This document shows positions 1 to 12,106 of a stretch of DNA of 64,000 bases, in pieces. The position numbers and the translations under genes are program-made. The notes under the pieces are model-generated. The model saw only the letters and a program-made list of their open reading frames with translations, searched no databases and was not told the origin of the DNA. The stretch's first letter is position 1, and every line of letters starts with the position of its first letter. The DNA is from Haliea sp. (GTDB lineage: Bacteria; Pseudomonadota; Gammaproteobacteria; Pseudomonadales; Halieaceae): positions 25 through 64,024 of the forward strand of contig JANNXP010000141.1 of assembly GCA_031409615.1 (NCBI GenBank). Reading direction: 5' to 3'.

Positions 1-1290
1 TACCGCAAAGCGCTTCTTGGCACGCACCTGTATCGGGTTCAGATTGGGCCGATCTAGGCCAGTACGGGCATACGAGAACCCTGCAAAGAGATCCCGGTGT
101 TGCTCAGGATCACTGACCACTGATACCAGGTGCTTAATCAGTGCTTCTCCGGTGGCACCAAAATATAAACCACAACTTGTTTTCAACTGGTCGACAAATT
201 CTTGGGTATCCTGCCCTCCGGTCTCAGGGAACATTTCTGCGGGTAGGGCAATATCCAGTATACGTACCCGTTGACCAGTGGTACCGGTACTCGATGAGGA
301 GTTCTCAACCTGCCATTCCAGAGGATACTCACCGGTACTGCCTATCTGGGTCTTCCAACGGTAACGCTCCCGCATTTGACGGTCACCCGTCATTGCGGAT
401 TTTCCAACCCCACCAGCGAGGTTGTAAATGACGCTACCCAGATCAGACATTTTATTGGTACCCACTTCATCCAGCGGCAAAAATATGTCATTGGCGCTCT
501 GTGCGAGCCCCTCAAGTGCGTTAGCGGTAGTATTCCAGCGTTGGATTATCGTGTCAGTTGGATTCTCCTCAGGGTCTGAACCATTGCCCCAGACACTGGC
601 CCCTACCTGAAGTGCGGTAGTCTTTCCCATGCTGCTGAGTCCATACAGGTGGAATCCCCCACCGGTGAGACCAAGTGGGCTCAAGAATGGGGCGGAACAG
701 GCCAAGCCACGGACAAATATCAGGTATGGATTGCCTTTGCATTTGTCGCTTACATGACGTTTCTCCTCTTCAATGGAGCAACTGGCATAGACCGAATGAT
801 GCACAGGTGACTTGCAGTCAGGGAGATGGATGGTATTTTCACCCTCAGTAACAACCTGGGTGGGCAGGGCAAAACCCTGTACTCCCATGGTGTCCGTAAA
901 CCAACCAATACGTTTCACAGCATACTCAGCTCCCACATGACGAAAGCTTTGTAAGTAGTGTAGGACTCTAGCCTGCTTGCCCGGAACGGTAGTGGCACCA
1001 ATGTCCATCAGCTTCTTGATCAGGCTGACTGCATTGTCTGCTATTAGCTGGGACCGAGGCGCATAATGATCACGTACCTCCCCGGAAACCACATCCAGAA
1101 ATTTGATGCGTACCAGGGTTGGAGAATCATCATCACGATATCGGATATTGGCATCAGACCAGATCAGGTCGCAGATTCGGTTGTCAGGGTGTACACTATG
1201 TTCATAGATGCCATGTGAGGTGATGACATAGCCTTCCGGTTGTTGGATACGGACTGTATTGCCATCAGGTAGGGTAACTGAAACTTCCAT
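1..1290 (-). CDS. DUF927-family ATPase/helicase (replication protein), partial, runs off window
   Basis: Manual translation: ATG at 1290 with GGAG RBS, at least 430 codons with no stop; GGFHLYGLSSMGKTT Walker A (619-642), RWNTTANALEG and LPLDE Walker B. Confidence 0.85.
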   Translation of the reverse strand, partial: MEVSVTLPDGNTVRIQQPEGYVITSHGIYEHSVHPDNRICDLIWSDANIRYRDDDSPTLVRIKFLDVVSGEVRDHYAPRSQLIADNAVSLIKKLMDIGATTVPGKQARVLHYLQSFRHVGAEYAVKRIGWFTDTMGVQGFALPTQVVTEGENTIHLPDCKSPVHHSVYASCSIEEEKRHVSDKCKGNPYLIFVRGLACSAPFLSPLGLTGGGFHLYGLSSMGKTTALQVGASVWGNGSDPEENPTDTIIQRWNTTANALEGLAQSANDIFLPLDEVGTNKMSDLGSVIYNLAGGVGKSAMTGDRQMRERYRWKTQIGSTGEYPLEWQVENSSSSTGTTGQRVRILDIALPAEMFPETGGQDTQEFVDQLKTSCGLYFGATGEALIKHLVSVVSDPEQHRDLFAGFSYARTGLDRPNLNPIQVRAKKRFAV

Positions 1291-1367
1291 AATAATATCT
1301 CCAAATTGAAATGACCGAACCGACATTGGTTCGATGGAGATACTCTAAATTTCGTTAGGTTGGACTA

Positions 1368-1407
1368 CTGGGTAGTAAGTAGTAGCAATTGAAACATAAC
1401 AACCTGA
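1368..1407 (-). promoter_or_regulatory. Degenerate copy of 40-bp palindromic box upstream of DUF927 gene
   Basis: CTGGGTAG-N24-CAACCTGA; same 24-nt spacer length, TAA start and ATAA end as the 6374 copy. Confidence 0.5.
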
Positions 1408-1516
1408 AATGATTCAGACTCGATTAGACATACAGTGCCAGTTTTTGTGTCTCCACCTCACGATAGCGGTCATTCTGGCCTGGATAAGTGCAGGGGCCGC
1501 TGCCACCTCACAGCGG

Positions 1517-1586
1517 TCCTACCGTAGAAGTCACCGGCGCTGCGCGGCTTTATCTCGCAGCGTCCGTCTGGACTGCCGGGTTAGGG
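1517..1586 (-). other. attC (59-base element) recombination site, R' mutated
   Basis: Minus strand CCCTAAC-CCGGC-AGTCCAGA-CGGACGCTGCG...CGCAGCGCCG-GTGACT-TCTAC-GGTAGGA; hairpin with bulged base; upstream ORF stop codon inside R''. Confidence 0.75.
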
Positions 1587-1814
1587 ATTGGGTCGACTAT
1601 CAAGGCGATGCTTTGCGTCAGCTATTAGCGACTCAAGCGCCCCAGAATCTCGCACCGAACTGACGACGACCTCTGCCATAGTTATCAATGCCTCGTCGTT
1701 AGACCCAAAGACTCTGAATCGGAGCTTTTGCCCATAGTCCCATATTTCGGCAGCGCAGCGATACGGAGGAAAAGCAGCTTCGATGTGTGAGCAAATATCT
1801 TGATCAGATAGCAT
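1581..1814 (-). CDS. Hypothetical 77-aa protein in integron-like cassette
   Basis: GGAG RBS within core-like GCTAGGA (1824-1830); stop TAA inside attC R''. Confidence 0.6.
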   Translation of the reverse strand: MLSDQDICSHIEAAFPPYRCAAEIWDYGQKLRFRVFGSNDEALITMAEVVVSSVRDSGALESLIADAKHRLDSRPNP

Positions 1815-1832
1815 TTGGGATGCTCCTAGCTT

Positions 1833-2270
1833 TTAGCGAAAGCGCTGGCAATAGACCTTTGAAATAATGAACGAGCCTGCTTGTTGATTGTCAGACCCGG
1901 AAACGATGTATTTCATATGCATACCCTGATCAAATGACCACTTGATGTCGTTGTCGGAGCAATTGCGCTGACCTATAAGTTCTTGCGCTTTAGCGAGAAA
2001 GTTCTGATCAAGATGAGCGGATGGGTAGTTCACCATCTTGATGTGATAGATGGTTGATGCTGTGCTTGCCTCAACTCTAGTGAGTTGCGTCTGGCTGTCC
2101 AGCATTGCCGGAAGCCCAAGATTCAAATCGACATTCGATTTAGCTGCCGCTTGCTGTTTATCTTGAAGAGTTGCAACTTGCTGAGGCGGTTTTTGAGCAG
2201 CGCGGCGTTCGATTTTGAAAATCGTCCAAACGAACACAACAACGATGATGATACCGATGGTCTTGAGCAT
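1833..2270 (-). CDS. Membrane-anchored exported protein, GspS/AspS pilotin-like or PA3611-like
   Basis: N-terminal TM segment; LPAMLDSQTQLTRVE...C...C pattern. Confidence 0.5.
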   Translation of the reverse strand: MLKTIGIIIVVVFVWTIFKIERRAAQKPPQQVATLQDKQQAAAKSNVDLNLGLPAMLDSQTQLTRVEASTASTIYHIKMVNYPSAHLDQNFLAKAQELIGQRNCSDNDIKWSFDQGMHMKYIVSGSDNQQAGSFIISKVYCQRFR

Positions 2271-2664
2271 ATAAACCGATAACAGTTAAGTGTACGGCAC
2301 CAACCGTATAACATGTTGCCGCCTAACACCAGAACGAGCATCCCGGAGGAACGGTTTTTCTATTTTTTCTCAACAGCTTAAAAATCTCGATTGTTATACC
2401 GTCAGGATAGTCTGCTCTCGCCGTATAACACCCTTCAGCACCTTTGTCGGTTTTGCCACTACTCAGGCACTGTTAGGATCGGCTGAACTGAATGCGAGTG
2501 GTTCGGTCTTTTTGATAGCACAGCTCAGACGGTCGCTTTTAGGCGAGGCTGTGTGAAAACGCAAAGACCGACAAAAGGAACTGAAAATTCTGGATTAATG
2601 GCTAGGTTAGAAAGAGACAACTTTAAAACCACTCTACTTCTGACCGCTGCTAAAAATGGGGGAA

Positions 2665-3141
2665 TTACCGAGGGTCATCCAATCTTAAAGCAGTAACGAC
2701 TCCATTCTCCGTGTTGCAGATGACGGATTGGTAGTATGTGGTGTCCCCTGAGGAGAGATTGTCGAAAAAGCCGCCCCCTGGATTCCTAACCTTTGGTTTA
2801 AAAGGCACCTCCTTCGCAGCGAGATAAATCTGGTATTTCATATACCCGACGACACGCGCCTCGTTACGCAAATTGGTACGTGAAGCGTAAGAACCATATC
2901 CGCTTAGATACGGGTCTCTATCTGGATAGGCGGACCTGACCGCACTCACACAACTCGCTATTGCATTATCTAGGTCACGGTTGGCAATTTTGTCCACATT
3001 GTCAGCAACCTCGTCCACTTTATTGCCACCTTCTATCATCACACCTATAATTTTGTCGCATCCGCTTAACAGCATCATCGCCCCAATGATTAGAGAGCCA
3101 CCAATCGCAGGAACCCAGTATTTCATAGTCATCGGCACCAC
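2665..3141 (-). CDS. Hypothetical lipoprotein
   Basis: Signal peptide with lipobox LLSGC. Confidence 0.6.
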   Translation of the reverse strand: MVPMTMKYWVPAIGGSLIIGAMMLLSGCDKIIGVMIEGGNKVDEVADNVDKIANRDLDNAIASCVSAVRSAYPDRDPYLSGYGSYASRTNLRNEARVVGYMKYQIYLAAKEVPFKPKVRNPGGGFFDNLSSGDTTYYQSVICNTENGVVTALRLDDPR

Positions 3142-3517
3142 CCGGTCAGCATTAAAGTGTCTAACGATAATGCTAGGTTAGACCCCTATGTTTTTACTGG
3201 AAACCGATAGATTACGCAAGTTCTTACATCTTTCAGAGCTGAGGATACTACCTTAGTTGACTGGATCAGTCGATCCCAAATCAACAGCTAGAAGAGGCAG
3301 CATACCCTGAAGGGAAGGTTAATTCTCTCTAACGCCAAGGGCCGCATTTAGGTGCGAGGCGGGAGTTCGTGCTCCAGGCTCAGCTAAGGCCGCTATAGAG
3401 TAGTAAAGCGGACGTACACCGGTGAGTTTTCGACGAGTAATTTTTGTCTTTTCCCACGTCAAAGCAGTACTTTCAGCAGTCATGACCTAGTGTCCGCTTT
3501 CATCAGGAAATTACGGT

Positions 3518-4075
3518 TCAAAATTTATTGCCCGCGCTTGGGTTTGACACTGGCCCTTCTCTGCCCCCCAGTGGTCTATTGAAGTACTCGTCTTTATAGT
3601 AGGAGTCTACTGAGCAACTATACTGCTCATACAGACCTTGTTGACGACCTCTGTACTTCTCCATCAAAACGGCACTTAAGTTTTTCCTATTTATGTGAAA
3701 CTCCATTCCAGTATCGTTCGATATTCTCCAGTCAACAAAATATATGATCGCGTAATTGGCATCACTAAAGTCAACATGTGTGGTATACCCCTCACTGGCG
3801 GTGTCGAACAGATTTATACCGCAGAAATATTTGTTGGCAATAAAACCGCCCTCTATCGCGTATTCCTTACCCCTCAATACGTGAACCTCTAAAGAACCGC
3901 ACCTATTTTTTCTGTAAGGCTTACATGAGAGAATCTTGTAAACTTCTAAAGACTCGCAGAATGAGTAGCTTCCATTATTTATACATAGCTTTTGCTTTGC
4001 GCTATCACACCCACCAAGGAAAAAGGCAATGACCAAAAGAAGGGGGATATATTTGGTATAATTGGCGATGCGCAT
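3518..4075 (-). CDS. Hypothetical lipoprotein
   Basis: Signal peptide with lipobox FLGGC; GGGAG RBS. Confidence 0.6.
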   Translation of the reverse strand: MRIANYTKYIPLLLVIAFFLGGCDSAKQKLCINNGSYSFCESLEVYKILSCKPYRKNRCGSLEVHVLRGKEYAIEGGFIANKYFCGINLFDTASEGYTTHVDFSDANYAIIYFVDWRISNDTGMEFHINRKNLSAVLMEKYRGRQQGLYEQYSCSVDSYYKDEYFNRPLGGREGPVSNPSAGNKF

Positions 4076-4173
4076 GAAAGCTCTCCCATCTCGAGTTTCA
4101 GCCGCTACATTTTGCTGTGATAAAAAACAAAGGTATTAACTCAGCTACTTAGTCTTAGATTAGAGAACGCGTC

Positions 4174-4545
4174 ATGATAAGTCAAATACTGGTGCTCTGT
4201 ACTTTTTTCTTGGTAGCGCCTGCCAGTGCCCAAGACAATTCCGACAAAGAAGCAGAAGAATTTATCGCTGCATTCACCCTCGAAACTGTCGTTGAAAAAT
4301 CTATTAATGAAGGAGCAGAAGGCCTTTATTATACCGGCTACCTGGATGCTGCGATCCATTCCGGTCAGTTCACGATAGCTCGAGATTCCGGATTGAATTA
4401 CTGTCCGCCTGGTAACCTAGCGGTTAACCATGCCACCGTTTGGAGTTCCTTCGATAGGTTCGCTGCCGCAAACTCGAAAAGCGCAACTCAAATGCATACG
4501 ATGCACAGCATCGTAACTTGGCTTTTGTGGATGTTCCCGTGTTGA
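4174..4545 (+). CDS. Rap1a/Tai-like periplasmic immunity protein
   Basis: Signal peptide, GYLDA...YCPP...FPC terminal pattern typical of Rap1a family. Confidence 0.55.
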   Translation: MISQILVLCTFFLVAPASAQDNSDKEAEEFIAAFTLETVVEKSINEGAEGLYYTGYLDAAIHSGQFTIARDSGLNYCPPGNLAVNHATVWSSFDRFAAANSKSATQMHTMHSIVTWLLWMFPC

Positions 4546-4801
4546 GGCGCGGCATGGGAAGCCGCGCTCACTGGCGCGAATGACCGCTATAAGTCGGCTG
4601 CGGCACTCAGGGCCAGTATAGCCAAAACGACCGCTTCTAGGTGCGATTAGAGACCTCCTGCTTCCGGATATTGCCCTTTTAAAAGGTCCGCTTCCGGGAA
4701 AAGTGGTTACTAGAGCTACGCCCGATAGTACACTATCTGTCGGATTCGCTCTGGTGTTTCACAATTACCCGGAATAGATTTTCTACATTTACCTCAGCAC
4801 T

Positions 4802-5980
4802 TTATGGAGGCGTTCCAAATCGTCGTGCAACGAGGGTTTTGATCCTAGCTTCGATGATGTTGTGTGTTTTTTCACCAGCAACACATTCACACCAGGAACG
4901 AATAATATCTCGAAGCTCAGAAGATTTCCCGTTTTTTGTCGGTAGCCCTATAGGCGTTGCTTCAAGTTCATAGGTGTAACCCTGCCGTTTTGCAAAGGAC
5001 ATATCATTCGATTGCGCCGCAACGGCAGAGATGTAGTTGTAGCGACTGTGTATAGCTTGGCCACCTTTCTTCAGTGCTTCTACATCTCGATCAATAGCCT
5101 TTTCGGTGTCCTGTGGCAGACGTCTAAACTGAGTATAAACATCAAAGTTCAATATATTGGTAATCAGGCGCACAGCCAAGAGAGTTGGCGCAATCAAACG
5201 AGCATCGACTTCTCGTTCAAAATAATTCAGATCATCAAGTTTCGCCTGTAAGTCATCTATGGTGGCCTCCAACTTCTCAATGAAAATGTCATCAAGAAAC
5301 CTTAGCTCCAAGCGTTCTGCCATTGGCGTAGTGATGGAGGTATAGAGCTGTCGGAAGTGCTTAATCGTGTTATCAATCTGTTCTTTTTCAGCATCAAGAT
5401 CTCGCTGTATTACCGAACCGGCAATTCCGCCGGATTTTTTGATAACCTCCTCATCTTCTTTATACATAGCAAACACCCTAGCGAGGCTTGCATAAACATC
5501 CATCCTGAAAAATTCCGGGTATGGTTCCTCATGCAGTTTCTTAAAATTTGCTTGGTCTAATGGAGCAAAGTGACGAAGATACTTTTCGGTAGTCGCTGAA
5601 ATTTGCGCATCCTTAAACAGCTCCTCGTATGCCTTGCACTTTTTTGCCGCGATGACTTTCGGCTTCCATATCTTGTCATAGTGAGACTGACTTACCGTTA
5701 CGTAATCATCAGCTGTGATCTCTGGCAAAATATCTCCAGTGTCCGGGTGAACCACCACAACACGACCATTGATATTTCTCGCTATAGGATCTAGACGGTG
5801 CATAAATATCTGTGCTCCCCCACTGTAGTCCTTTAAATATTCTCCTGTAGTAAATATGGTTCGGTCAGAAGATTTAGGCTCGTAGCCGTGTCGATCTCCT
5901 CCATAAAATGTGGCAGCAAAATCGCGTAGATCTCTGGCAGTTACACTGAACGCTTTACCTGGCTTTTTTGTTTTTGCCAT
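4802..5980 (-). CDS. Hypothetical 392-aa protein, coupled to the HTH gene
   Basis: Long ORF; TAATG stop/start overlap at 5978-5982. Confidence 0.75.
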   Translation of the reverse strand: MAKTKKPGKAFSVTARDLRDFAATFYGGDRHGYEPKSSDRTIFTTGEYLKDYSGGAQIFMHRLDPIARNINGRVVVVHPDTGDILPEITADDYVTVSQSHYDKIWKPKVIAAKKCKAYEELFKDAQISATTEKYLRHFAPLDQANFKKLHEEPYPEFFRMDVYASLARVFAMYKEDEEVIKKSGGIAGSVIQRDLDAEKEQIDNTIKHFRQLYTSITTPMAERLELRFLDDIFIEKLEATIDDLQAKLDDLNYFEREVDARLIAPTLLAVRLITNILNFDVYTQFRRLPQDTEKAIDRDVEALKKGGQAIHSRYNYISAVAAQSNDMSFAKRQGYTYELEATPIGLPTKNGKSSELRDIIRSWCECVAGEKTHNIIEARIKTLVARRFGTPP

Positions 5981-6312
5981 TAGGTGTCCATTCCTCGTGC
6001 ACGGGTGTTTATGGTGTCTACCTCAGCCAGATGCTTATATTTAGGTCGGGTGGCTAAAAAATGATCGAGGTCTGTCTTCAGGTACTTCACAGGCTTGCCA
6101 ATCTTAATGAATTTGGGTGGATCGCCACCATCGGAAATAATTCCTGTCTTTCTGACCTTCTTGAGCCATTCCTCGCTCATGCCAAGGTAGGTCGCTGCCT
6201 CGCTGGTATCCAGTACCAGCCTGTCAGAGCGGTCCAAGGAAGACGATCTGAGCGTGCTGAGAATCGCCTGAAGTGTACTGTCTATCTTTGAAATGTCGAT
6301 GATGTCGTTCAT
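5980..6312 (-). CDS. Excisionase/AlpA-like helix-turn-helix protein
   Basis: LDTSEAATYLGMSEEWLKKVR...PPKFIKIGKPVKY, downstream of integrase. Confidence 0.8.
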   Translation of the reverse strand: MNDIIDISKIDSTLQAILSTLRSSSLDRSDRLVLDTSEAATYLGMSEEWLKKVRKTGIISDGGDPPKFIKIGKPVKYLKTDLDHFLATRPKYKHLAEVDTINTRARGMDT

Positions 6313-6373
6313 TGTCTGGCCTATTTGACTCGGTTGACTGTGAACGAAATATATCGATCACCGAACTAGGTAG

Positions 6374-6413
6374 CCGGGTAGTAAACACATCAAAATCGCG
6401 CATAACTACCCAG
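6374..6413 (-). promoter_or_regulatory. 40-bp palindromic box upstream of xis
   Basis: CCGGGTAG-N24-CTACCCAG, plus extra CTAGGTAG at 6366-6373. Confidence 0.6.
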
Positions 6414-6419
6414 GCTAAT

Positions 6420-7682
6420 TTAGTCCGCCAATAACTCAACAGCGCCTGCCTTGTGGTCCTGAGCCAAGTGAGCATACCGGAGCGTGGTTCCCAGATCCGA
6501 ATGTCCCAATAACTCTCGTATAGTGTTCAGAGGCACACCGAGCATCACTAGCCTGCTAGCGAAGTGATGCCGTAAGTCATGGAATCTGAAGTCAGTAATA
6601 CCAGCAGATGCCAATACAGACTGCCACGCCGTCTTGATATCCACAAACCGGTTTTCGTTTCGGTTCTTGAACACCCAACCAGAACAGGGTGATTGCTGTT
6701 TACTCCAACTCGTTAATACCTCCATAGCCCGCTTGTTCAGGTTTACATGGCGCACCTTGCGGGATTTAGCATTAGCCGCCCGTACGGTGATTACTTTTTG
6801 ATCGAAATTAACGTCATGCCATTTCAGGCAAAATATCTCTCCTTTTCGAAGACCCGTATTAATGGCTAATAGCACCATAGGTTCAATATGGTCTACAAAC
6901 TCCCCATCCTTGAATTCGGGATACAATTCGTACCCTCGGTCTGCACGCCAGTCGTTGGCACTGGCCCTAGCTTCTGCTAGCCCACAGTGACGAAGCCGGA
7001 GGGCTTTATAGAGACTCCCCTCCTCCACCTTCGACAGATAACGGATCATCTCATCGTCCTCCTGCCTGAGGTTCTTCACTTCGGCTAGCGGATTCGTATC
7101 AATATGCTTTGTTGCAATCGCTCTTGAGAACACAGCCCGTAAGCAAGTCAGATTGCGATTAACTGTTGCTGGCTTAACTGGATTACCCTGCTTGTTGGTC
7201 CGGGCCAACTCCCCTACCTGCCACTTTTCGATCTCGGCAGCTGTAATCAGGGCTATTGGCTTGCTCATCAAGTGGTCAAAATAACGATTCAGCACATAGA
7301 TGTTTGAGCTACCTCTTTTGTTGTGCTTCAGTACCCATGGCTCGTAGTGCTCCTCAATAAATACACGCAACGTCATCGCTTGATTTCGAATCGCATTGTC
7401 TCGCTTAATCTGCTTCTCCGCTTGGGGATCTTTACCTGTGGCAATATCCCCTGCCGTGGCTTTTGCCATTTCCCGAGCTTGGGTTAGAGTCACATCCCCA
7501 TGCCTACCTAGTTTCAACCTGACCCGTTTACCCGTATTAGACTTATAGCTAAAATAGTAAGTCCGTCTACCGGTGGGCTGTATCCGCAACAGAAACCCTG
7601 GCAACTGAATATCAACTGCTTCATAGGGCTTGGCTTCGGGGATCAGTGAAATAATGCTCTTTTCAGTAAATTTGATTTTCAT
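6420..7682 (-). CDS. int: Tyrosine recombinase/integrase with N-terminal arm-binding domain (P4-like)
   Basis: TGLRKGE, HDLRHH, LGH, RYAH catalytic motifs; GFLLRIQPTGRRTYY arm-binding N-terminus. Confidence 0.93.
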   Translation of the reverse strand: MKIKFTEKSIISLIPEAKPYEAVDIQLPGFLLRIQPTGRRTYYFSYKSNTGKRVRLKLGRHGDVTLTQAREMAKATAGDIATGKDPQAEKQIKRDNAIRNQAMTLRVFIEEHYEPWVLKHNKRGSSNIYVLNRYFDHLMSKPIALITAAEIEKWQVGELARTNKQGNPVKPATVNRNLTCLRAVFSRAIATKHIDTNPLAEVKNLRQEDDEMIRYLSKVEEGSLYKALRLRHCGLAEARASANDWRADRGYELYPEFKDGEFVDHIEPMVLLAINTGLRKGEIFCLKWHDVNFDQKVITVRAANAKSRKVRHVNLNKRAMEVLTSWSKQQSPCSGWVFKNRNENRFVDIKTAWQSVLASAGITDFRFHDLRHHFASRLVMLGVPLNTIRELLGHSDLGTTLRYAHLAQDHKAGAVELLAD

Positions 7683-7984: not shown

Positions 7985-8029
7985 CTCCTAAGGGGAAGGC
8001 CGCGTGTTCGAATCTCGCAGGGCGGACCA
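7985..8029 (+). tRNA. 3' half of tRNA-Arg(CCT); att-site remnant, not a complete tRNA
   Basis: Anticodon loop CTCCTAA, GGGGA, T arm GCGTG-TTCGAAT-CTCGC, AGGGCGG-A-CCA; no matching 5' half upstream. Confidence 0.75.
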
Positions 8030-8483
8030 CTAACATACTGATATATAACATTGTATATTGAATTGGTGGAATTGTTATTTGGAGTAAATCTCCTCGTAAG
8101 TGCAACGGGTCACACTTCCTTCGATTCAGGCGTCGCACATATAGGTTAGATTCACAAATTGCGATCGCGAACAGAACAAGCCAAAGAGTATCTACCAGCG
8201 GCATGAATCAAAAGTTAAATAACGGCAAGCCTGAAGACTGCCTGAAGTGAGGCTCGCCTTTATTTCAATAGCAGACGACCCAGTAAACCGAACGTCTTAT
8301 TGAAATTCTAGCAGTTTGCGTCGTGGTCAACCTTAGAGATATTAGTGTTGTATCATCTTTGAACTCCGACTGGCCGATGCTACTTAAGATGTAGTTATTG
8401 TTCAGTGTCTGCCTGATAAACTGGTTCACGCCGGACTAAGGATACCGCTGCATGGATAGCACACAGGATTATATAAAGATGGA

Positions 8484-8641
8484 GCAACGCAGGCTGACAT
8501 TGAACCAGTAGGTTCCGACTTCATTCTTAACGAGGCCATTGGCACCCGCGGTGAGCAATCGACTTCAGGACAGCAGGCAAGGCTGTGGAGTCGCACAGGC
8601 AAGCTGCTGGCGACGACCGAAAACTGGGCTGGTTCAGGTAA
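8484..8641 (+). pseudogene. C-terminal remnant of a thioesterase-family gene
   Basis: DFILNEAIGTRGEQSTSGQQARLWSRTGKLLATTE then 1-nt frameshift into LGWFR*; no start codon. Confidence 0.45.
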
Positions 8642-8706
8642 GCGGGCCGTAAGGGGATTTATAAGTTAGCTGTCCTGCCTGCTCGGCTGCGCCAGTGATG
8701 ATCGGA

Positions 8707-10613: not shown

Positions 10614-11720
10614 TTACTTCCTTCGCTCAATTGCATTGAACGCCTGAGTGACGCGTTGTAGGTAGTTGTCTACGTAAAACTTTTCTATTGCTTGCTGAAC
10701 GGCCTTCCCTTCAGGTAGTGTTTTTCCATCGACTATTTGCTGTAGTAGTTCGGCTAACTTTTCTTTGTGCCCTGAGGCATATAAGCTGCCATTAACAGAC
10801 TCAGCAATAATTTCCAGTGGCCCCGTTTCACAGTCAGAACTAATTGCATAAATTCCATATGAATTAGCCTCCAGCAGAGCCATTACCAACCCTTCGTATT
10901 TGGACGTCAATATGAGGCTTGTTACCTCGCGCAGCGATTCCGTAATATAGTGCCACGGGTCATTTTGCCAACCATGCCATCGGATCTGGCCTGTAATATT
11001 TAGTTTATTGGCAAGTGCTTTTAACTCAAATTCATCTTCGCCTGAACCAACAATATTGAGCATCCAATCGCCTTTGACAAAGACTAACGCTTCAAACAAT
11101 TCGCGCATATTTTTCTGCCCATCGGCAATCACGCGACCAACATATATGAATTGTTTAGTTTTTTCTGGTCTTGGAATAATGACTTCATGACGGGGTACAG
11201 GATTGTAAATTGTAAATATCGTCTTTCCATCAACTCCCATTTCGATGAGCTGATTTGTAATTCCGTCACTAATGGAAAGGTGACCATCCGCTCGACATAG
11301 ATATCTTGCCCTTGACATGCTGGTTACAGAAAAATGGACCCATGAAAGAACAACAGTTTTATGAAATGAAAATTCGCGAGCCATAACACTAATAAAACAA
11401 AGAATCGGATCCAAGCTAAGGATCAAGTCTGGTTTTTCATGACGAAATATTTTGCGTAGAGAATTTGCAAGAAACAAACGCCCTAATTTGCGGTGTCTGA
11501 CTGGTGGGGTAATTTTGCAGTAAGCCTGGCCAGCCAGCCAGTCATCGTTCACTTCCCTTCTAACTTTCCTATTCGTTTTTGCCGCTCTAAAAAAAACTAA
11601 TGAAATATTGATCGTTGGTTCACTAGCTCTAAGTAGCGTAATGAATCTAAGGATGACGGTTTCCATGCCGCCCAACCCGCTGAGTTCATTGCCTACGATG
11701 ATCACTCTATTTACTTCCAT
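10614..11720 (-). CDS. waaB: GT4 glycosyltransferase, LPS 1,6-galactosyltransferase WaaB-like
   Basis: [43 protein letters not shown] motifs colinear with enterobacterial WaaB. Confidence 0.75.
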
Positions 11721-11781
11721 AGAGACGTACTCCGCGTTGATTCACAATGAAAGTTTCTCTCATAGTGAGATCTACTAGATG

Positions 11782-11810
11782 TTGCATGAATACCGTGTAT
11801 CCGGTATTTT
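11782..11810 (+). promoter_or_regulatory. Sigma-70 promoter with operator for higBA
   Basis: TTGCAT-N17-TATTTT; ATACCG-N6-CGGTAT palindrome at 11790-11807. Confidence 0.7.
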
Positions 11811-11816
11811 CGGCAT

Positions 11817-12106
11817 ATGATCACATCATTTGGCAACAGGGCACATCTGACCTATTTCACGGCATACCTAGCCGCTATGCCAGAAAGCTGCCAAGCCAAA
11901 TACACGAACTCGCGCTGTACAAGCTCGATGTTCTGAATGCTGCTCAAGCCCTTGATGACCTACGCTCTCCTCCGGGAAATAGGCTCGAGACTTTAAAGGG
12001 TGAACTTAAAGGCTTTTGCAGCATTCGCATTAATTCCCAGTGGCGTATCATTTTCCGCTGGATAGACAGTAGCGCCACCGATGTTCAAATTTTGGACTAT
12101 CACTAG
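11817..12106 (+). pseudogene. higB: HigB (RelE/ParE family) toxin with 1-nt deletion near 11842
   Basis: MITSFGNRA in one frame, TSDLFHG...DLRSPPGNRLE...SIRINSQWRIIFRW...DYH in another. Confidence 0.75.

Follow-up and report, generated by a model that had tools for sequence, protein, structure and literature searches.

What are the short palindromic boxes that lie between the accessory genes of a small integrase island in Haliea sp., and do they have a part in the way those genes were gained or lost? The island begins a 64,000-nucleotide stretch of contig JANNXP010000141.1 (positions 25 to 64,024 of the forward strand; this whole stretch is called the window below), and the source of the window is a metagenome-assembled genome (MAG) from freshwater sediment. 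An earlier note on this DNA had described paired hairpins with GDCCGCT arms among the accessory genes, and had proposed them as a second, non-attC class of cassette boundary, possibly of an uncharacterised gene-capture system. Our analyses show that the best preserved of these units belongs to a previously undescribed, modular, structured, non-coding intergenic repeat family, and that two decayed copies stand at the limits of the inserted cargo. With about as much doubt as confidence, we favour the reading that the repeat is a mobile or recombinogenic element, similar to miniature inverted-repeat transposable elements (MITEs) or bacterial interspersed mosaic elements (BIMEs), that marks and perhaps mediates gene gain.

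All of the units listed in the earlier note were found where it had placed them. They comprise two hairpins, GGCCGCT-N10-AGCGGTC at 1495-1518 and GGCCGCT-N12-AGCGGAC at 3388-3413, and other boxes at 1465-1471 (minus strand), 3340 (GGCCGCA), 3492, 4582, 4629 and 4686; the loop T[CT]TAGGTGCG, which had been reported as shared, is present at 3346-3355 and 4636-4645. Across the whole window the 7-mer GDCCGCT is no commoner than expected (31 boxes against 32.5), yet 10 of the 31 boxes fall inside 1448-4706, which makes up 5% of the window (binomial P=1.9e-6). These ten all lie in four intergenic gaps, in agreement with the observation that the boxes are confined to the gaps of the cargo. The full hairpin GDCCGCT-N8-14-AGCGGHC was seen twice against a mean of 0.02 in dinucleotide shuffles, and none of 300 shuffles reached two. 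The pairing at 47, 48 and 47 bp was also borne out, as three same-strand pairs have this spacing (p=0.006 under random placement in the window; p=0.008 with the boxes kept inside the four gaps and every spacing bin allowed), and a box spacing of 47-48 nt was seen again in relatives from other genomes. The units are arranged as follows.

1437-1518, minus strand: site A, a decayed copy and the left arm of an inverted repeat, with boxes at 1449-1471 and 1495-1518 whose heads, at 1471 and 1518, are 47 nt apart
2642-2648, plus strand: solitary GACCGCT box in the gap 2271-2664, without a hairpin partner, which may be a chance match
3322-3470, plus strand: site B, a near-consensus full family copy (profile, covariance model and alignment), with leader TTCTCTCTAACGC, box1 at 3340-3362, box2 hairpin at 3388-3413, P3 hairpin at 3432-3448 and a decayed 3' terminal box at 3449-3470
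3492-3498, plus strand: solitary GTCCGCT box directly 3' of site B
4582-4655, plus strand: site C, the right arm of the inverted repeat, with boxes at 4582-4604 and 4629-4654, 47 nt apart
4686-4797, plus strand: third box (GTCCGCT at 4686), followed by what may be a decayed tail of C that reaches to the stop codon of the next gene, gene X (weak covariance-model match at 4715-4816, E=7.6); this tail possibly belongs to the C copy

The units had been treated as one class. They are all real, but the three sites are unequal, B being near-consensus and A and C far more decayed. Site B is presumably a recent copy, and A and C are old ones.

Site B matched the family profile with nhmmer at E=1.3e-35 and the covariance model R1 with 133.6 bits (E=4e-33), and it is 82-90% identical to the copies at loci L023, L025 and L033. 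Its stretch 3360-3464 recurs at ~83-88% identity in metagenomes of unrelated studies that lack most of the island. A scan of 185,579 species genomes with a pattern derived from the hairpin gave 36 matches, mostly due to chance (~17 chance matches were estimated for the 18 specified bases), and only three of them, L023, L025 and L033, extended past the pattern. All three are MAGs named 'uncultured Gammaproteobacteria', with 57-62% G+C. A second scan, of metagenomes with a conserved-tail pattern, gave eight contigs holding five distinct copies, a diverged copy was found in a Halioglobus MAG (L047, E=4e-15), and a harvest via a spurious open reading frame (ORF) across the repeat yielded one further copy only. 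The family was thus recovered from three Gammaproteobacteria MAGs, one Halioglobus MAG and five metagenome contigs. Exact-pattern matches occurred once per genome in 3 of the 185,579 species genomes, and about half of the known copies fit the pattern. Profile and covariance-model searches gave no family copy in the window's 51 kb of core DNA, two pattern scans of viral contigs found none either, a DUF927 scan of viral contigs was equally negative, and a literature search with conserved-core strings of the repeat found no paper. The family appears, from these sequence matches, to reside at low copy number in the chromosomes of Halieaceae-like sediment Gammaproteobacteria.

In the family alignment (A4), the repeat is ~140-150 nt long and begins with the leader TTCTCTCTAAYGC. 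This is followed by box1, GRCCGS..TAGGYG, and 47-48 nt after it by box2, a CCGCT/AGCGG hairpin with a GAGTAG loop. Next comes a nearly invariant stretch, GTACA..GGTGAGTTTTCGACGAGTGATTTTTGTCTCT, which holds a GACGAG/TTTGTC hairpin, and the 3' end is an inverted terminal box, CACCTC-N4-GCGGYC. This core is conserved far better than the flanks or the adjacent genes. We rejected a protein-coding reading of the repeat, because reading frames differ among copies, indels of 1 nt occur, and the tail shows no variation even where third codon positions would fall. Resemblances to dif/Xer sites, Tn3 or IS5 ends, and sigma-54 or extracytoplasmic function (ECF) sigma factor promoters were considered, and were dropped because they are short.

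The place of the repeats in the island became clear from a comparison with related islands (L046-L051), chosen by a DUF927 protein 75-80% identical to that of the window. The features concerned are listed below.

1-1326, minus strand: DUF927 primase/helicase-like gene of the backbone, running past the window edge (Pfam PF06048, E=4e-42)
1441-4801, no strand: cargo block between gene X and the DUF927 gene, defined by the related-island comparison
1581-1814, minus strand: cargo orphan ORF
1833-2270, minus strand: cargo orphan ORF
2665-3141, minus strand: cargo orphan ORF
3518-4075, minus strand: cargo orphan ORF
4174-4545, plus strand: cargo orphan ORF
4802-5980, minus strand: gene X of the backbone, 392 aa, with no Pfam family and with BLASTP homologues in related islands
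5980-6312, minus strand: HTH_17/AlpA-like gene of the backbone (Pfam)
6420-7682, minus strand: P4-type tyrosine integrase gene of the backbone (Pfam)

The order in L046 and L048-L051 is integrase, HTH_17 gene, a gene of 347-417 aa, 143-150 nt of spacer, and DUF927; L047 has a similar spacer and a DUF927 gene, a partial integrase, and no gene X called. Nucleotide homology to these relatives spans the integrase and HTH_17 genes (5980-7682; 74-80% identity to L046, L047 and L048) and resumes at 1354, directly upstream of DUF927, and 1355-4801 has no nucleotide or protein match in the related islands. Gene X is an orphan by a word-based protein search, and BLASTP aligned it to the 347- and 417-aa genes at the equivalent position with 28-31% identity (E=1e-15 and 5e-14). 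Since gene X is homologous and 1355-4801 has no match in the relatives, the cargo is an insertion of ~3.35 kb in a short backbone spacer. The spacer alignment suggests that the backbone spacer falls almost entirely on the DUF927 side (1327-1440), the distal part alone not being significant, and we place the exact left limit of the cargo only tentatively, within 1355-1448. None of the five cargo ORFs has a Pfam family; judged by eye, the N-terminus of three or four is of signal-peptide, lipoprotein or transmembrane type. On the evidence of the island comparison, this cargo is bracketed by A and C at its ends, with B inside.

Whether A and C belong to the same family as B is a question of its own. 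Local alignment of each to the family gave p~0.01, and the two form an imperfect inverted repeat, the reverse complement of A aligning with C over ~80 nt with a score of 44, against 23.3 +/- 3.9 in shuffles (0/300; z~5). The GACCGCT heads of the two sites point inward to the 3,063 bp between the arms. It is conceivable that A and C are similar by chance, or that they are regulatory palindromes peculiar to this island, B alone being a family member; the profile E-values are non-significant window-wide, and there is no extra metagenomic depth at A or C. We consider this very improbable, as the 47-nt spacing is common with the family (p~0.007), the inverted similarity of A and C is as strong as given above, the second box of C resembles the family box1 (20/24 identity to that of L023), and the related islands have no such boxes in the equivalent spacer.

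The behaviour of the copies at other loci is more like that of a low-copy repeat that moves or recombines than that of a resident RNA gene. The genomic neighbourhood was different at every repeat-bearing locus. Near-consensus and decayed copies were found a few hundred bases to ~2.6 kb apart, the decayed or partial ones being as follows.

L038, 6148-6276: decayed or partial copy
L025, 3604-3691: decayed or partial copy
L042, 1875-1962: decayed or partial copy
L047, 1088-1176: decayed or partial copy

Genes between two copies code for a 129-aa membrane protein in L038, a 448-aa lipoprotein in L042 and, in the Halioglobus MAG (L047), an exported protein that is PEP-CTERM-like by eye. The lipoprotein gene is 89% identical between L042/L041 and L033. 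The repeat upstream of it is near-consensus in one of these genomes and heavily diverged in the other, and downstream of it their homology ends exactly at the leader start, the 5' end of the repeat, with the break 9 nt from the sole GTT-like core. These results are in line with the link to gene gain and loss that had been proposed: A and C stand at the ends of a cargo block absent from five related island loci, L038, L042 and L047 have accessory or exported-protein genes with copies on their flanks, and one copy lies at a synteny break. The repeats are therefore not scattered uniformly in the manner of repetitive extragenic palindromes (REPs). The set of sites is more specific than a generic REP, with the decayed A/C pair bracketing the cargo.

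A terminator-like module of ~95 nt (GGCTC-TTTCG-GGAGCC, a T-rich tract and AAAGCCGATGA) is dispersed as well, and often directly precedes the repeat leader.

L047, 977-1105: terminator module copy
L047, 4602-4688: terminator module copy
merged L042/L041, 2546-2674: terminator module copy
L033, 2324-2418, reverse complement: terminator module copy

After one repeated terminator module, L042/L041 has a full repeat copy, L047 a short variant and L033 no copy; the comparison gives no clean empty site, because the DNA beyond the repeat is not syntenic. The flanked gene of L047 and the lipoprotein gene of L033/L042 have a domain in common (57-60% in tblastx). Because the terminator module is repeated and two flanked genes are paralogous, some of the gene-between-repeats arrangements may be segmental duplications. 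Taken further, the repeat would be the flanking DNA of exported-protein paralogues, a 3' untranslated region (UTR) plus terminator module that was copied along by segmental duplication and horizontal transfer, and a gene flanked by repeats would be a by-product. The repeated terminator module in L047, L042/L041 and L033 and the shared domain speak for such a passive origin. We nevertheless find it quite improbable as the general explanation, as the proteins of the window cargo, L038 and L023 show no similarity to one another or to that paralogous family, and the repeat core is so much better conserved than what surrounds it.

Two more non-coding modules were observed upstream of the repeat, at L038 5234-5355 and L025 6054-6178, which are 82% identical over 125 nt and strong in sediment metatranscriptomes (depth up to 594); the window copy is without them. 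In some genomes, a longer non-coding unit may exist of which the repeat forms the 3' portion.

We return to the reading of a MITE/BIME-like repeat. The repeat would then be a non-autonomous unit that spreads in trans or via recombination between copies, and its copies would be portable joints where accessory genes are gained, lost or shuffled. The cargo of the window might have come as a repeat-bounded unit, like a mobile insertion cassette (MIC) or MITE-flanked composite, or it might have been inserted at the apex of a head-to-head doublet that was already present. When the cargo was removed in silico, the joint AGCGGTC^GACCGCT (^ marks a joint here and below) came to lie in the middle of a long hairpin (-30 kcal/mol, DNA parameters). 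The head-to-head empty doublet GCGGTC^GACCGC was absent from the fetched repeat-bearing loci. The analysis shows that the family exists, how it is built, that it stands at the cargo limits and that it is transcribed somewhere; mobility, a responsible enzyme and a causal role in gene acquisition are inferred.

Among known systems, the MICs of Bacillus cereus and the MITE-flanked class 1 integrons in Acinetobacter are composites in which MITEs flank other genes. The present repeat resembles them in being short, non-coding and structured, with several copies and with pristine and decayed ones together. In addition, the inverted copies A and C bracket passenger genes, including attC-like material, with no transposase inside, and, as in a MIC, the passenger genes bounded by the inverted copies are absent from L046-L051. 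It differs in having no target-site duplication, weak terminal inverted repeats, a low copy number per genome, no identified parent insertion sequence, and an arm polarity opposite to that of an outer-end composite. For a composite transposon or MIC one would also look for a duplication flanking the whole unit, of which there was no sign, and for a transposase acting in trans, which was not identified among the scanned window ORFs or the neighbours in the fetched loci.

The likeness to REPs and BIMEs lies in the ~24-nt extragenic imperfect palindromes set in mosaics, with a CCGCT/AGCGG stem and conserved linkers, and in the varying combinations of modules (terminator, leader, box1, box2 plus tail, box3). 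Singlets, direct doublets and inverted doublets all occur, the repeat is transcribed, and GTAG is present in the box1 and box2 loops. However, an exact-pattern match occurs about once per genome, where a REP or BIME would have tens to hundreds of copies. Conservation is higher in the linker and tail than in the palindromes, and GTAG is in the loop and not 5' of the stem. A further difference from REPs and their doublets (REPINs) is that no REP-associated tyrosine transposase (RAYT) gene turned up when 10 neighbouring ORFs of the fetched loci were scanned.

Several of these observations weigh against a MITE/BIME-like repeat. One match per genome is low for a repeat of REP or BIME type. Within the 150-nt repeat, the terminal inverted repeats are weak, box1 and the inverted 3' box sharing GRCCGC-N4-AGG-GCGA at ~9-12 of 20 positions. 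No direct repeat of at least 7 nt is present at the outer ends of A and C, where no target-site duplication was found, and none was evident around B or the other full copies when their flanks were inspected. The heads of A and C face the cargo, the reverse of a simple composite using its outer ends, which mildly favours insertion into a pre-existing doublet or a more complex history. The matches of these two sites to the family are poor: site A is the best match outside B in the nhmmer search at E=2.1 (family positions 4-65), and site C is the best covariance-model match outside B at E=0.63 (4624-4673, aligned with an internal deletion). The 10 neighbouring ORFs that were scanned at the fetched loci include no transposase, RAYT or recombinase that recurs beside the copies. 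Finally, the finding of genes between copies is partly explained by exported-protein paralogues duplicated with their flanks.

The structure and transcription of the repeat bear on another possibility. RNAalifold predicted three local helices (P1-P3) for the family on the plus strand. Of the alignment cells in these helices, 95.6% are paired, against 46-53% when the partners were slid. Double-sided changes were seen at four pairs compared with 1.0 in shuffles, and 1 of 500 shuffles reached four. The P3 hairpin has a single variable paired position, where G-U is replaced by A-U in one copy and by G-C in another. Consensus folding gave -6.7 kcal/mol for the reverse strand and -14 kcal/mol for the plus strand. 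Covariation over nine related sequences, from which the structure itself was derived, gives modest support to a predicted conserved structure, short of proof. In two sediment metatranscriptomes, many variants of the repeat were present with a summed depth of up to 1155, compared with ~8 for an adjacent gene. The repeat is transcribed somewhere; these Logan contigs carry no strand and the depth adds up variants, and the data therefore speak of transcription and not of a discrete RNA. The window's own copy was not present in any RNA run.

The repeat might be primarily a structured RNA, working either as a small RNA or in cis, within the leader or 3' UTR of exported-protein genes. It would be made from the plus strand, would fold into helices P1-P3 and would have, close to the 3' end, a CACCUC of anti-Shine-Dalgarno type; the DNA copies would be its genes or regulatory sites and not mobile DNA. 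The covariation with strand-specific G-U pairs, the much worse folding of the reverse strand and the metatranscriptome depth agree with this, and so does the fact that the repeat often directly precedes or follows, in the same orientation, a gene whose product is an exported or membrane protein (L023, L033, L039, L040, L042, L045, L047 and window site C). However, window B, L038 and the copy upstream of L023 are not co-oriented with any neighbour, and the next start codon lies anywhere between 67 and 458 nt away. Prediction gave neither a promoter nor a terminator within the repeat. Rfam 15 gave no gathering-score match in the window, and even at E<=10 only chance-level matches were obtained (1300-4850 and L038 5100-6300). 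In addition, decayed fragments in differing contexts are unusual for an RNA gene. We regard a primary role as RNA as unlikely, and, since REP-like repeats are also transcribed, it would be compatible with a MITE/BIME-like repeat.

The left arm of the inverted repeat adjoins attC-like material of integron type, which bears on the gene-capture idea.

1519-1591, no strand: attC-like high-copy palindromic repeat, 71 nt, adjoining site A (recognised by metagenome depth and core sequences)

The summed depth of this repeat was 68-86 in the source study, against 3-9 for its flanks, and up to ~5000 in another study, with loose contig ends at 1518-1531 and 1565-1584 and fold z values of -2.0 and -2.7. 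The stop codon of ORF 1581-1814 lies within its CCCTAAC box. Other copies read GCCCAA^C ... GGGTTGGGC, with the complementary cores GCCCAAC and GTTGGGC/GTTAGGC in attC fashion. On the minus strand, other copies read ...CTAC^GTTGGGC and the window reads ...CTACG^GTAGGACCGCT, so that the 71-nt repeat meets A where the attC crossover (G^TT) would fall. The statement that an attC abuts one of the units at 1517/1518 was judged reasonable, because other copies carry GCCCAAC...GTTGGGC. Several further features of this repeat were observed. The core of the window copy is degenerate on the side adjoining site A, and nearly all other copies have G instead of T at 1555, with a longer central stem. The repeat is very abundant in sediment metagenomes of several studies, and one contig holds two copies head to tail (joint 1591 to 1521). 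Non-coding cargo stretches at 2280-2347 and 2305-2543, in the gap 2271-2664, also recur in unrelated metagenomes at ~87% identity, and this gap holds attC-like cores (GTATAAC 2309, GCCTAAC 2322, GTTATAC 2393 and GTTAGGA 2473); it may be a second attC-type site.

The GDCCGCT units themselves are not attC sites. They are like attC in lying between small orphan ORFs, forming hairpins, having a conserved structure and having a GTTAGAG/CTCTAAC-like core at one end. However, there is no complementary R''/R' pair, since the CTCTAAC of B (3327-3333) has no GTTAGAG at the other end and the family GTTGAGT in the box2 loop is not complementary to CTCTAAC; moreover, the primary sequence is conserved across genomes, and the junction at the polymorphic site is not at G^TT. 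Attribution of the units to attC was rejected on the DNA fold of 3326-3470 (z -0.51 on the plus strand, +0.93 on the minus strand); the fold of site B is branched and of low frequency, with no overall imperfect palindrome. No IntI was seen nearby, the P4-type integrase being the only one among the ORFs scanned with Pfam to 17.8 kb.

Being of non-attC type, intergenic in the cargo and present as A and C at its ends, the units agree with the description of a second boundary class, but a role in capture does not follow. If they were recombination sites of a non-attC gene-capture system, perhaps acting as folded single strands that assemble arrays of exported-protein genes, one would point to A and C bracketing the inserted cargo with B subdividing it, to the direct copies flanking exported-protein genes in L038, L042 and L047, to the copy at a synteny break, to the covarying hairpins and to the joint CTACG^GTAGGACCGCT at the would-be crossover. 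Against this, a segment between copies contains two to three genes of mixed orientation and not a single one, no recombinase or transposase accompanies the copies from locus to locus, and their gene neighbours are unrelated. The orientation of copies is inconsistent too, since some loci have direct copies while those of the window and L023 are inverted, and the L042/L033 break is 9 nt off the sole GTT-like core. No deletion, excision or circle joints were present in the contigs of four runs of the source study, although contigs cannot show rare forms. The proposal of an uncharacterised capture system is thus not supported by our results, and we hold it to be improbable.

A related thought is that the repeat is the site of a structure-specific system, in which folded single-stranded DNA would be acted on by an unlinked HUH (histidine-hydrophobic-histidine) or tyrosine enzyme that moves exported-protein gene modules between the chromosomes and integrase islands of Halieaceae-like bacteria. 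These would form a second kind of gene cassette, joined to integron cassettes at 1518/1519. This joint claim we rate as improbable as the capture system. The palindrome-associated transposable elements (PATEs) of IS200/IS605 provide a lead only: they are alike in having no target-site duplication and subterminal hairpins near both ends, and several copies of the repeat start directly after (G/A)ATGA. They differ in that the window copy follows GGTTA, no TnpA/TnpB gene is present in any locus, and cleavage motifs are undefined. The homologues of the integrase, DUF927 and AlpA genes of the window are absent from the other repeat-bearing loci, and the sole adjacent transposase is that of an IS4-type element by the L041 copy, whose 34-nt inverted repeats are unrelated.

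The rest of the island and its surroundings can be described briefly. The G+C content is 44-52% across the first ~13 kb of the window, against ~58% in the remainder.

7985-8029, plus strand: 3' fragment of a tRNA gene (...GTTCGAATC...CCA), with the T-arm and CCA end, recognised by sequence

By its sequence, this fragment is an attachment-site remnant at the right end of the island; a complete tRNA gene was not found in the window. The piece 7985-8048 is common to other organisms, and loose contig ends run on as tRNA-like sequence. Gene X diverges very fast (28-31% identity) compared with 75-80% for its neighbours, its counterparts lying at L046 8597-9850 and L048 7077-8120. A GGGTAG...CTACCC-type palindrome upstream of DUF927 keeps its position in the window (1365-1400), L048 (8170-8200) and L046 (9905-9930); it is probably a backbone operator, separate from the GDCCGCT repeats. 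Past the island end, the stretch 8484-8645 has 85-95% identity to contigs of other organisms and studies, and a second low-G+C stretch holds a HigB-like toxin ORF at 11747-12106 (PF05015, E=1e-22). A group 1 glycosyltransferase gene is located at 10614-11720.

The import would be far greater if the repeats proved to be sites of dedicated cassettes or a mobile structured RNA, and the present evidence establishes neither. If the repeat is a MITE/BIME-like element as we favour, it would represent an undescribed family of small repeats from uncultured sediment Gammaproteobacteria, and the window would offer an example of the entry of accessory genes into the compact backbone of a P4-type integrase/DUF927 island, by way of repeat-bounded joints and beside integron-type material. 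Such an example would then be of use in annotating such islands and in telling their backbone from their cargo.

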